The position numbers were made by a program, and so were the translations under genes. Shown in pieces: positions 28,850-33,792 of a DNA stretch of 64,000 bases. Positions within the stretch are counted from its first letter, which is position 1. Each line of letters starts with the position of its first letter. Source of the DNA: Minisyncoccota bacterium (GTDB lineage: Bacteria > Patescibacteriota > Minisyncoccia > UBA6257 > 2-01-FULL-56-20); contig JALHNY010000005.1 of the NCBI GenBank assembly GCA_022843285.1, positions 10,315 to 74,314 on the forward strand, in the 5' to 3' direction. The notes beneath the pieces are model-generated. The model was not told the origin of the DNA. It did no database searches and saw only the letters and a program-made list of their open reading frames with translations.

Positions 28850-28993
28850 TCACCAGCTGAAGAGCTTCTTGAACCACGACTTCTTTGGAGCACGACGCTT
28901 CACACGACGCTTCACGCTGGCGCGGCTCTTCGAGGGGCACCGTCCGTTGCGGCGGCGACCGTGCTTGCACTTCCTGCGGCGGGGCGTCTTCAT
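28850..28993 (-). CDS. 47-aa highly basic micro-protein (MKTPRRRKCKHGRRRNGRCPSKSRASVKRRVKRRAPKKSWFKKLFSW)
   Basis: ATG overlaps the upstream stop (ATGA). Confidence 0.5.
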   Translation of the reverse strand: MKTPRRRKCKHGRRRNGRCPSKSRASVKRRVKRRAPKKSWFKKLFSW

Positions 28994-29754
28994 CGTGCGG
29001 TCTCTTTCACCTTGGGTGCTCCGCCTGCTTCCTGCACAGCGAAGTCCTGCTTTCGAATGACGAATTCCTTCGGCACTTCCCAGCCGGGCGGCTGAGCGAC
29101 AGTCGTGTCGAGCGGCGTCCAACCCTTCCCGGGCACTTCGACGGCGAGGTAGATGTGGTTCCAGTTCGTCTCGCCCTTCGTCTGCACGATGCGCGAGCGC
29201 ACCTTGTAGCCGACGGAGCGGAGGAGCGCGCCGAGGAGCGCGACCTGGTCATCACAGTCACCGGCCTTGAGCGCGAGCGTTTTGCGCGGCGTGGCGAATG
29301 CGTCGAAGTCAGTCGGGTCCCACGTGTAGCGGACGCGCTTGCGGACTTCCCAGAAGAGCGCCTGCACCTCGCCCCAGTTGTCCTTCTCGCGGACCTTCCA
29401 GTTGCCGTTCGCGTCCTGCCGCGACAGCACTTCGCGGGCGAGCGCGTAGATGACCGGGTCGCGCGTGCCCTTCACCATCTGCTCGTGCACGAAGGCGACG
29501 CGCTGCTCGATGGACTTCACGCGGCGCTCTTCGAAGTTGAGCGGCGTCTTCGCAGACACCGAGGCCTTCATCTTCTGAGGGCCCACCGGAGCGCGCCCGA
29601 ACGCCTCACCCGTCTTGAGCGCGCTCGAGATGAGGTCGTACCCCACCGCGCCGTACGCGATGCGTGCCCACGCGGCCTTGCGGTCGTCGAGGACCCTTGC
29701 GCTGAACGCAGCACCGAGGGCGAGACCGATGACCTTGTCGAGATTGGAGCTCAT
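28990..29754 (-). CDS. transglutaminase-like cysteine peptidase
   Basis: GDCDDQVALLGALLRSVGY is the transglutaminase core motif with the catalytic Cys. Downstream His and Asp candidates are present. Confidence 0.6.
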   Translation of the reverse strand: MSSNLDKVIGLALGAAFSARVLDDRKAAWARIAYGAVGYDLISSALKTGEAFGRAPVGPQKMKASVSAKTPLNFEERRVKSIEQRVAFVHEQMVKGTRDPVIYALAREVLSRQDANGNWKVREKDNWGEVQALFWEVRKRVRYTWDPTDFDAFATPRKTLALKAGDCDDQVALLGALLRSVGYKVRSRIVQTKGETNWNHIYLAVEVPGKGWTPLDTTVAQPPGWEVPKEFVIRKQDFAVQEAGGAPKVKETAR

Positions 29755-31580
29755 CAGTATGCCCTCGGGCCCGCGCTGACGTTGGGCATCAAGCCTCGAG
29801 CGGCGAACGACAGCTGATGCTGGAAGCGGTCACCGCCGAGAATGACGTGGTCGAGCATCGGCGTGCCGAGCTGCTTCGCAAGAATGGCGAGCTTGTTGGT
29901 CATCGCGATGTCGGCAGCTGAAGGCTCGACGTTTCCGTTCGGGTGCGAGTGGTAGATGACGAAGGCAGACGCGCCCTGGGTGAGCACCGCGCCGAAGACG
30001 ACACGCGGGTCGACGCCGAGCGAAGCCATTCCGCCGACGCCGATTTCGACGACGCTCAGCACTTCATTCACGCTGTTGAGCAGCACGATGCCCGCGTGCT
30101 CCTGCGCCTTGTCGACGATGCCGGCTTGAATCATTTTGAGAATGGCCTCAGGCGTCGACACCTTCACGCGCAGGCACTTCTGCCGCTCAAGGACGAGCTT
30201 CTGGAAAGGCACGTCGCCCGGCTTGCAGTCCTTGTTGGCAGCGGCGCCCATGAGCTTCACCGTACCCTGAGGCGCGCTGTTCACCGAGGAATGCAGCCCG
30301 CGCAGCTCGCCCTTGTCCTCGAGCTGGTCGAGCCACACGAGCATCTCCTGCCGGTCGCGCTCGCTCATCCTCCACTTCACCTCGCTGTAGTTGAGGCGGT
30401 CCTTGAGCGTGATGGTGGGGCCCGCAGCGAGCGAGAGCTTCACGCGGTTCAAGTCGGCGATGAGATGGTAGTCCTGCTGGTCCCCGTCACGGACTGCGGC
30501 GCGTATGAAGTGCGAAGCCGTTCCGCCGCCCAGGGGAACCGCGTAGCGCGTCAGGTGCAGTCGGTACGGGACCACCTCCTGCTTTCCGCGTGCGTCGGGC
30601 GGCGCGATGAGGTCGACATCGAACGCGTGCGGGGTTCGAAGCATCTGACCGCGAGCGGGAGGCGCAACGTCCGTGACGATGCCCCGCACACCGGCCAGCC
30701 CCTGCTCCTCGAGCTGGTCGAGCCACACGAGCATGCGTTGCGCGTCGGCCGGAGCAATCTTCACCGAGCGCCGCTCGGCCCACATGCCTTCACGCCACGA
30801 GATGAGTCCCTTCGGGAGCGACATCTTCAGCAGCTTGGTGCTGGAGAAGAGTCGAACTCGGTTCGGCGGAGGGAGGTCGCTGCGCACGAACATCACCGAG
30901 CGTCCGTTCACGGGAGAGGGCTGCTGAACTTCGCCGGAGACGCCCGCGCGGAACGGCTTGAAAATGCCTCCACCGATGTCGAGGTCCGTCTCGAAAAGGA
31001 GGCTGGGCATCGTACCCAAGCCCTTCAGGTCGTACCCGTACGCGCCGTATCGCTCATCGAAGGAGAGGTCTTTCGTCATGTCGGGCGGTTCGTCGCGCAT
31101 CGTGAAGGCCCGGTACTCGAGGCCGTGCTTCGCCGCGAGCTTCTCGTGAACGCGACTTGCCGGAGTGGAGTGGACGGTGCCGTTGACGTGCCTTGCGCCC
31201 AGGTGCCACGCGGCGGCGAGTAACGCCTCGTACATCGACTGGCCGAGACCGAAGCGTTGGAACTCCGGCCGCAGATAAGAGTTGGTGATGAGAAGCGTCT
31301 TGCCCGTATTGGGTTTGCCGGTGCGTCGGTCGAAGCGCTCTTTCAGAACGATGCCGCTCGCGTTGCCGATTTCATCATCACGCAACATGTTCGTCGGGTC
31401 AGGCCCCGCGTTTGGCTTCATGAGCACGACGCGAAGGAGGTCACGACCCGTGTCAGCCCATTGCTCGACGTAGAGCTTGAGGCCTGGCGGTGCGAGATGA
31501 GGCCATTCGGTGACGCGGCCGCCCGACCACTTCACCTTGACGCGCTTGCCCTTCGGAATGGTGCTGATGGCGGCGAACAC
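29754..31580 (-). CDS. multidomain polyvalent-type protein: GNAT-like N-domain, internal repeats, C-terminal RadC/JAB domain
   Basis: C-terminus matches RadC across ...IYHSHPNGNVEPSAADIAMT...LDHVILG. QRFGLGQSM fits GNAT motif A. Repeats RMLVWLDQLEEQG and EMLVWLDQLEDKG. Confidence 0.6.
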   Translation of the reverse strand: MFAAISTIPKGKRVKVKWSGGRVTEWPHLAPPGLKLYVEQWADTGRDLLRVVLMKPNAGPDPTNMLRDDEIGNASGIVLKERFDRRTGKPNTGKTLLITNSYLRPEFQRFGLGQSMYEALLAAAWHLGARHVNGTVHSTPASRVHEKLAAKHGLEYRAFTMRDEPPDMTKDLSFDERYGAYGYDLKGLGTMPSLLFETDLDIGGGIFKPFRAGVSGEVQQPSPVNGRSVMFVRSDLPPPNRVRLFSSTKLLKMSLPKGLISWREGMWAERRSVKIAPADAQRMLVWLDQLEEQGLAGVRGIVTDVAPPARGQMLRTPHAFDVDLIAPPDARGKQEVVPYRLHLTRYAVPLGGGTASHFIRAAVRDGDQQDYHLIADLNRVKLSLAAGPTITLKDRLNYSEVKWRMSERDRQEMLVWLDQLEDKGELRGLHSSVNSAPQGTVKLMGAAANKDCKPGDVPFQKLVLERQKCLRVKVSTPEAILKMIQAGIVDKAQEHAGIVLLNSVNEVLSVVEIGVGGMASLGVDPRVVFGAVLTQGASAFVIYHSHPNGNVEPSAADIAMTNKLAILAKQLGTPMLDHVILGGDRFQHQLSFAARGLMPNVSAGPRAY

Positions 31581-33284: not shown

Positions 33285-33294
33285 GGAGGCTCCC

Positions 33295-33792
33295 TTATCG
33301 CTTGCTGCGCTTGCCGCCGCCGAGCGAGTCACCTGCGGTACGAACCGCGCAGTTCTCGCCCTTCATCAGGGCCTTCACCATCATGAGTTCCTGCCGTGCT
33401 TCCTTCGGCGGGAGCAGCTCGCCCTGGTGCTTGCCTGCGTTGACCGAACAGAGGCGCACCTTGCGCTTGATGGGCGTCGAGGTCGTGACCTTCTCCTTGA
33501 CGAACTTCTCCTTGGAGTAGTCGAACGTCTTGACGACCTTGAAGCCCTTCTTCTGCACCGTCACTTCGCGCATCTCGCACTTCGTGCGGATGACCGGGCA
33601 GCACTCGGAACCTCGAGCGAGCTGCTTTTCGAGGCGGGCCTTGCTCATGGCCTCCGCCTTCAGCGCCTTCTTCGTGCTGGCTGAAGCGGTGACGGTGACG
33701 TCGGTGCGCGGTCCACCCCGAACGGAGTCGGGGAGAATCGCGTCGAGCCAGCTACCGAGACGAGATGAACGACGGCGGCGGTGCATGACCAT
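33295..33792 (-). CDS. basic protein (C-terminal ...GGGKRSKR)
   Basis: 165 aa, Lys/Arg-rich with Cys pairs. Confidence 0.5.
   Translation of the reverse strand: MVMHRRRRSSRLGSWLDAILPDSVRGGPRTDVTVTASASTKKALKAEAMSKARLEKQLARGSECCPVIRTKCEMREVTVQKKGFKVVKTFDYSKEKFVKEKVTTSTPIKRKVRLCSVNAGKHQGELLPPKEARQELMMVKALMKGENCAVRTAGDSLGGGKRSKR

Follow-up and report, generated by a model that had tools for sequence, protein, structure and literature searches.

What is the function of a gene cassette in which two multidomain proteins stand upstream of a putative cysteine peptidase? The cassette lies on the minus strand of contig JALHNY010000005.1, within a stretch of 64,000 nucleotides (contig positions 10,315 to 74,314, read on the forward strand) that was analysed as a whole and is referred to here as the window; coordinates below are those of the window. 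Its genes are named F, E, D, C, B and A in their order along the strand, with B and C as the mosaic proteins and A as the transglutaminase-like peptidase. An earlier reading of the DNA (the original prediction) had likened this cluster to the polyvalent proteins that phages and conjugative elements inject to counter host defences. Our analyses lead us, with about even confidence, to regard B and C as polyvalent-type effector carriers of a myxophage-like clade, served by peptidase A, probably by processing.

Protein B (608 amino acids (aa); 29754..31580, minus strand), whose start lies 3 nt past the stop codon of C, combines a GNAT-like acetyltransferase domain, two copies of a module named here after its LVWLD motif, and a RadC/JAB domain. 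The GNAT-like domain (31011..31523, minus strand) carries an acetyl-CoA-type motif, QRFGLG, and residues 88-148 match Acetyltransf_1 (PF00583) with 20.7 bits (E=5e-4), which is exactly the Pfam cutoff. We accepted this originally predicted assignment because homologous domains score strongly, namely those of the B orthologue at the related locus L010 (1.1e-12) and of the related proteins P0002 (3.9e-10) and P0035 (5.8e-10). The N-terminal region of B, which reaches the threshold and bears the Q/RxxGxG/A motif, is accordingly predicted to be a GNAT-type acyltransferase, with predicted catalysis. It shares 51% identity with P0001, and the N-terminus of B (AISTIPKGK...) is the conserved lead-in of its GNAT subfamily.

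At the other end of B, residues 475-596 (29793..30158, minus strand) match RadC (PF04002) with 94.6 bits against a cutoff of 22.1 (E=5.1e-27), supported by NCBIfam RadC (4.8e-26) and PDB 2qlc (1.3e-14). The E, HxH and S..D metal-site motifs are intact, with EH, HSHPNG, PSAAD and LDHVILG aligned to 2qlc, so the RadC-type JAB domain of the original prediction is borne out. Other JAB models score lower, with Prok-JAB at 27.7 bits (just over its cutoff), the PADLOC defence-type JAB at 14-15 bits and desampylase at 16.5 bits. These profiles place the domain firmly within the RadC clade, with an intact putative metal site. Like bacterial RadC (PDB 2qlc; NCBIfam PRK00024/TIGR00608), it retains all the catalytic motifs, but B matches only the C-terminal JAB part of the models (positions 83-211/212) and stays under the equivalog cutoff, and the GNAT domain and two LVWLD modules take the place of the N-terminal part of cellular RadC.

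The LVWLD modules connect B to C. The motif stands at residues 285 and 415 of B and at residue 302 of C (numbered from the ATG at 33284), and a degenerate fourth copy lies at C523. The repeat that had been predicted in three copies was therefore upheld as significant, with two copies in B and one clear copy in C, and its count was amended by the extra degenerate copy in C. Profiles of modules 1 and 2 of B matched each other with E-values of 1e-5 to 1e-7, and matches across module groups reached 1e-5 to 1e-11. None of 2,200 shuffled decoys scored below E=0.05, and a chance repeat was rejected as the inter-group matches outscored all of the shuffles. Individually, B module 1 (30684..30998, minus strand) was recovered by a profile of B module 2 and P0010 (1.1e-7) and by the iterated profile (1.1e-27), B module 2 (30291..30626, minus strand) by a profile of B module 1 and P0001 (1.1e-5) and by the C-family profile (2e-3), and C module 1 (residues 160-322; 32319..32807, minus strand) by the B-module profile (2e-4). 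The iterated profile found 41 LVWLD modules in 24 related proteins, some of them up to 1,562 aa long.

Each module spans approximately 100-130 residues and is beta-rich, with the LVWLD helix as a cap. The copy at C residues 160-322 was modelled by AlphaFold2 from a 25-module alignment with a mean predicted local distance difference test (pLDDT) of 88.6 and a predicted template modelling score (pTM) of 0.83, giving a beta-rich fold in which one helix is short and a second, long and C-terminal, bears LLVWLD. Foldseek searches of the model against PDB and BFVD returned nothing significant (E of at least 0.09, template modelling (TM) score of at most 0.45), and no bacterial-PH family of Pfam was matched. 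Identity to PH-superfold adaptors (NECAP PHear, RanBD, EVH1 and PTB) and to the Whirly, SsgA and MRP folds was 4-13%. The modelled fold appears weakly PH-like or Whirly-like, two likenesses that the comparison did not separate, and has no close structural relative. The LVWLD module is a new domain without a Pfam family.

Protein C (566 aa; 31584..33284, minus strand) consists of a small beta-domain, the module described above, a Cys-containing helical domain and a degenerate module; its ATG at 33284 matches public gene calls (P0006, 100% identical). The N-terminal domain (MARGKCPRAGVRVKH...LVYVKWD; 33045..33284, minus strand; profile 1.1e-29) has beta-strands in the AlphaFold2 model (pLDDT ~60). 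An N-terminal beta-domain common to B and C had been proposed, and this did not hold, as the profile of the C domain matched C alone in the six-frame translation of the window. The same domain opens the gene that precedes the peptidase gene or a B-like gene in L001, L010, L012, L016 and L017. The helical domain (SEHATEF...GQC...PFDQKCIRSEPVSE...RPGLAG; 32022..32351, minus strand; profile 3.2e-44) weakly matches phrog_27168 (E=6e-4). It is the commonest piece of the family and is N-terminal in proteins of up to 1,562 aa. The degenerate module 2 (VALD; QVALDAWQSLGFKGLGS; 31674..32012, minus strand) is marginal when taken alone, with E=0.77 for the B-module profile; its own group matches other modules at approximately 1e-3 to 1e-2, and its predicted order of secondary structure is that of module 1. 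A full-length AlphaFold2 model of C (pLDDT 43.5) was used solely for this order. The paralogy claimed for B and C survives as a shared LVWLD module and does not extend over their full length, since BLASTP aligns only the 27-residue LVWLD helix (E=2e-4). Pfam recognised no domain of the polyvalent repertoire in C.

The very N-terminus of C is a basic, Cys-containing peptide, M-x-R-x-K-K-C-P-R (33260-33284), which was also observed in P0021, P0022, P0025, P0027 and P0028. It persists where the following beta-domain is missing; an L-S-G-S/T linker, followed by the helical domain, then comes directly after it. This peptide might be a targeting signal.

Protein A (254 aa; 28990..29754, minus strand; core 29107-29388) is the best-conserved gene of the cassette, and its start overlaps the stop codon of B (ATGA at 29754). 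Consistent with the original call of a transglutaminase-like Cys peptidase, it matches Transglut_core (PF01841) with E=9.2e-11 and 42.4 bits (cutoff 23), and Cys167, His200 and Asp216 are invariant across 12 homologues, down to 24% identity. Profile and triad together place A in the transglutaminase-like superfamily, and its peptidase activity is predicted. A is 83% identical to its orthologues in L001 and L010; the corresponding values for other genes are 62-65% (a DUF87 ATPase), 67% (a GP88-family protein) and 45-62% (F, D and E). There are 67 relatives of A in total, including approximately 60 (clusters) with at least 50% identity, all of them single-domain, and in every relative examined the gene directly follows a mosaic gene, with overlapping stop and start codons.

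Among 50,697 phage records, the sole match to A is gp34 of Salisaeta icosahedral phage 1 (SSIP-1; L015 21296-22210), a 304-aa protein annotated as structural in a membrane-containing phage, and the only relative from a cultured phage. The two proteins share the core and the Cys/His/Asp triad, with 30% identity across 91 residues; gp34 differs in its C-terminal membrane anchor and in having no mosaic gene upstream. Kinship of the whole phage to SSIP-1 was considered and rejected, as the transglutaminase core alone matches and no other gene of the window is shared. Conserved hydrophobic segments were observed in the N-terminal part of A in this clade (residues 1-45), and in SSIP-1 gp34 and P0122 the hydrophobic segment forms a membrane anchor at the C-terminus. 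These segments suggest membrane association of A and its relatives.

We then compared the cassette across related loci. Its order, F-E-D-mosaic protein(s)-peptidase, is kept in at least six related uncultured contig sets from Logan, ENA and NCBI, with synteny observed in the window, L001/L002, L010/L011, L012/L013, L016 and L017: a small gene (142-185 aa), a low-complexity gene (735-792 aa) and another small gene (142-174 aa) precede the mosaic gene or genes and the transglutaminase-like gene. The first mosaic carries the N-terminal domain of C, and the second (B) is optional, being absent from L012, L016 and L017. Each related locus examined has its own architecture of the B and C orthologues. 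For example, the B orthologue of L001 has a module and two GNAT domains without RadC, that of L010 (679 aa) has a module, GNAT and RadC, and the C-like protein of L017 (P0030) contains a fused RadC domain. RadC is missing from the cassette in L001, L012 and L016. These comparisons indicate that the predicted domains of B and C are rebuilt between close relatives by gain, loss and reordering, within a conserved cassette core that is common to a clade of uncultured phages, high in GC, whose contigs reach ~80-85 kb. On visual inspection P0016, P0020 and P0040 seemed to contain ParB-like (DGHHR) and ART-like motifs, which were set aside because Pfam did not support them.

How might A act on such variable proteins? 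Boundaries between unrelated domain types bear an approximate [L/F/R/K]-x-G-L-[G/A/S] motif (LSGLGS, FFGLGS, FKGLGS, YDLKGLGT and RPGLAG), and several relatives terminate at RPGLAG-KR or RPGLAG-RK. GLG occurs 79 times in the family against 13.7+/-3.5 expected from composition (approximately 6-fold), a count inflated by shared ancestry, and is unenriched in 13 control proteins from the window. The motif follows within 24 residues in only 24 of the 52 VWLD-like matches. When five divergent C-like proteins are aligned, no more than 38 columns are invariant; the Gly and Leu of the linkers are among them, and both are located in the tail of the module model, where pLDDT is low. Proteolytic processing is suggested because these residues are invariant yet unstructured, and because they adjoin the gene of an invariant Cys peptidase with an overlapping start. 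The mosaic proteins might then be polyproteins, cut by A at the G-L-G linkers to free GNAT, RadC, LVWLD and helical products, a tentative proposal that we consider somewhat unlikely. Viral polyproteins are known to be cut at small residues, as by the adenovirus protease at (M/I/L)XGX-G and by papain-like proteases at LXGG. The likeness here lies in a hydrophobic-x-Gly-x-Gly-type motif at domain boundaries together with a virus-encoded Cys peptidase; the differences are that the protease belongs to another fold class, that the site would be G-L-G rather than G-G, and that cleavage is proposed from the conserved linkers and gene order. Our search found nothing specific in the literature on transglutaminase-like virion proteases.

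Do B and C belong with the polyvalent proteins? GNAT, often beside ART, and RadC are among the domains listed for these proteins (Iyer et al. 2017, PMC5512222), and B has both in one polypeptide. The family is phage-encoded, as polyvalent proteins can be: the window carries the phage-type replication and transcription genes listed below, and relatives are confined to viral-like metagenomic contigs, the largest ~80-85 kb. The variable architectures described above are a further likeness, as is the associated peptidase. In addition, the GNAT region of B is related (tblastn, E=5e-7) to WNM70333 of Myxococcus phage Mx1 (L009), a protein of 1,479 aa that in Pfam also has ART-PolyVal (2.8e-16) and NUDIX domains and is followed by a PI3/4-kinase-like protein. 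Proteolytic processing of polyvalent proteins, including P1 DdrB, has been discussed (PMC5512222). The four peptidase superfamilies named there are MPTase, assemblin-like, DD and LonC, and the word 'transglutaminase' does not occur in that paper, whereas here the peptidase is a separate transglutaminase-like gene. The scaffold also differs, being the new LVWLD module, and no link to structural genes is visible.

Several observations weigh against this assignment. B and C are far smaller than polyvalent proteins, at only ~600 aa and with no more than two catalytic domains, and Pfam detected no hub domain, with MPTase, ArdC-N, LPD and ART-PolyVal all missing from B, C and ten large relatives. 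The GNAT score of B itself is only at threshold, and the modelled module has a weak fold assignment. The identifiable neighbours of the cassette are genes of DNA metabolism (a PD-(D/E)XK nuclease, an SNF2 helicase, a primase, a methyltransferase, HNH endonucleases and GP88) rather than recognisable virion genes. Lastly, the biochemical activity of RadC may be either nucleic-acid processing or that of a metalloprotease (PMC5512222, PMC11981726). Separately, a literature search on RadC as a phage anti-defence factor gave nothing specific. The originally proposed resemblance to polyvalent proteins therefore stands in part, carried by the combination of GNAT with RadC, the domain shuffling and the link to Mx1, and is weakened by the lack of a hub domain and by the DNA-metabolism neighbours.

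If B and C are effector carriers of this type, the GNAT and RadC heads and other domains would be strung on LVWLD modules that serve as binding or adaptor domains. Early in infection, GNAT and RadC would modify host proteins or nucleic acids, leading to host takeover or counter-defence, and B and C would diversify fast under conflict-type selection. A would most likely be their dedicated protease, cutting the conserved G-L-G linkers, and B and C might be either carried in the virion or merely expressed early. We infer the delivery into the host, its timing, the host targets, the anti-defence role and the cleavage by A. In phage T4, internal proteins that counter restriction are packaged in the head and proteolytically processed. 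The concept is shared with these and with the P1 Dar system: accessory proteins encoded in one operon, of which some undergo proteolytic processing, shield the incoming genome. There is no sequence kinship, however, the proposed G-L-G site and transglutaminase-like protease differ from those systems, and packaging and processing are putative here.

Among the other explanations, the one that survives best is a virion-internal or morphogenetic module, in which an unusual virion would contain E, D, B and C, and with them their enzymatic domains, as core or cargo, with A as a maturation protease or a membrane-anchored structural enzyme. We consider this unlikely, and it overlaps with the effector-carrier reading if the cargo is injected. 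It draws on SSIP-1 gp34, the only phage match to A, annotated as structural and with the same triad, although that match is a single gene with limited identity, and on the hydrophobic N- or C-terminal segments of A and its relatives. The rigid order of the cassette across the clade fits such a module, but the rapid domain shuffling of B and C would be unusual in structural proteins. A DUF87 HerA/FtsK-type ATPase gene (47850-48764, plus strand), which also matches phrog_2666 'terminase large subunit', lies ~11 kb from the cassette in the window and close to it in L001, L010, L012, L016 and L017; the identifiable flanking genes nevertheless belong to DNA metabolism. None of the more than 40 open reading frames (ORFs) of the window that were scanned could be assigned to a capsid, portal, terminase or tail family, which would agree with an unusual virion, but the ~21 kb of the ~85-kb genome that lies beyond the window could house the structural genes.

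Decidedly unlikely, in our view, is that the genes are unlinked neighbours. A would then be a cell-wall enzyme (an endopeptidase or amidase) that serves lysis or entry, B and C would be accessory DNA-repair or replication proteins belonging to the replication gene block, and G-L-G would mark an ordinary flexible linker. A shows a weak similarity to the pseudomurein endo-isopeptidase Pei family (Peptidase_C71, E=0.026), but a separate likely lysin, distinct from A, is encoded by a PG_binding_1 gene (E=8e-6) at 13164-13781 (minus strand). The cassette does sit inside a long minus-strand gene run with the primase, the SNF2 helicase and the PD-(D/E)XK nuclease, and RadC is traditionally labelled as DNA repair (PHROG 10276 match), a role that is disputed (PMC5512222, PMC11981726). 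Against mere neighbourhood stand the position of A immediately after a mosaic gene, with overlapping codons, in all relatives examined, and linker residues that are invariant while the structured parts vary. It is highly improbable, finally, that the JAB domain gives B a deubiquitinase- or deISGylase-like activity for removing ubiquitin-like conjugates made by host defences (Bil or CBASS Cap2 type): the original prediction had allowed for this role, and the intact JAMM metal-binding motifs, the Prok-JAB score and the Ubl (ubiquitin-like protein)-cleaving JAMM proteases that are structural neighbours of RadC-like domains (PMC11981726) speak for it, but it is not supported because the domain is firmly of the RadC clade and weak to models of the deubiquitinase type, RadC-clade JABs having been argued to lack the groove for a ubiquitin tail (PMC5512222), while Pfam and NCBIfam scans recognised no ubiquitin-like gene in or near the cassette, and RadC is dispensable in three related loci.

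The remaining genes of the cassette bear out the predicted basic proteins and the 766-aa acidic and Pro-rich protein. F, the first gene (185 aa; 36168..36725, minus strand), has no recognisable domain in Pfam, PHROG or NCBIfam, and its orthologues at the same position in L001, L010 and L012 share 41-62% identity. E (766 aa; 33871..36171, minus strand) is of low complexity with acidic, Pro-rich and Met-rich blocks, an isoelectric point (pI) of 4.8, 11.6% Pro, and 25 D/E within residues 101-150; it matches no family in Pfam or PHROG, and orthologues of 735-792 aa occur in every related locus. Residues ~330-400 of E hold a Met-rich stretch, GGDMMSLMMLMMMEK, followed by a Pro/Met-rich one, PPMWSMPPMPMPPPPPP, both of which were also observed in the distant orthologue of the contig L018. 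D (165 aa; 33295..33792, minus strand) is very basic (pI 10.4, 23.6% K+R); its position is filled by a gene of 142-174 aa in all relatives. The counterparts in L001/L002 and L010 are recognisably similar to D (53-60% identity), whereas no similarity was detected for that of L012. Two genes after the cassette, g159 and g215 (27184..28314, minus strand), keep their order in relatives, with tblastn identities of 33-61% (g159 in L001, L002, L010 and L012; g215 in L002 and L010), and have no match in Pfam, PHROG or NCBIfam.

The flagged minus-strand genes lie at the coordinates originally given and have a GC content at third codon positions (GC3) of 0.83-0.86 and a coding-type distribution of GC over codon positions. 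ORFs on the plus strand opposite to them, at 29.9-33.7 kb, were treated as high-GC shadows because they failed the GC3/GC2 coding pattern. Between the peptidase gene and g159 lies a small plus-strand ORF (~28472-28846), whose sole detected homologue is at 12736-13155 of L006, an unrelated phage contig of 172 kb, two genes from the GNAT-like P0004. A peptidyl-tRNA hydrolase (PTH2) identity for this ORF was not supported, as the L006 copy is sub-threshold (E=0.005) and the copy in the window has no Pfam or PDB match.

Elsewhere in the window, which has a G+C content of 65%, there are phage-type replication and transcription genes: PolA, a family A DNA polymerase (60621-62933), two helicases (56874-58700 and 40808-42541), a DUF3987 primase (43818-45128), an RNA ligase, a Sak4-like protein and a sigma factor (49408-50205). 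The gene run downstream of the cassette includes a GP88-family gene (PF17338; 24783-27182, minus strand), split by an intein with a LAGLIDADG homing endonuclease, and two HNH_3 homing-endonuclease genes (24282-24779 and 22315-22947, both minus strand); a DNA methyltransferase (phrog_757, 2e-56) is at 21560-22303. The same intein was observed in the GP88 orthologue of L010 (798 aa).

Proteins 100% identical to those of the window were found on public contigs, the largest of 84,912 bp. The C-like profile recovered only 50 proteins among 1.84 billion cluster representatives, and no relatives were returned by DNA and protein searches of the 50,697 phage records, by searches of IMG/VR or by queries of GTDB genomes with C. 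The clade was found neither in the cultured-phage collection INPHARED nor in IMG/VR, and GTDB species genomes held only one contig of it, binned in a Myxococcales metagenome-assembled genome (MAG). This 36-kb contig, L018 (JBBRUE010000001.1), encodes a homologue of A that is 53% identical, with an E-like gene upstream. A host in Myxococcota is hinted at by the MAG-binned L018, the link of the GNAT domain to Mx1 and the 65% G+C; we therefore consider a myxobacterial host probable, though only hinted at, with binning being weak evidence.

Taken together, our findings would carry the theme of polyvalent proteins over to a clade of uncultured phages that probably infect myxobacteria. They define the LVWLD module, for which Pfam has no family, as a new putative adaptor domain that can be folded with confidence. 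If cleavage by A at the G-L-G linkers is true, the cassette would represent a previously undescribed trans-acting protease-substrate system for the release of phage effectors. In B, a RadC-clade JAB domain is joined to a GNAT domain in a fast-evolving, conflict-type protein, which may offer a compact construct for probing the function of RadC.

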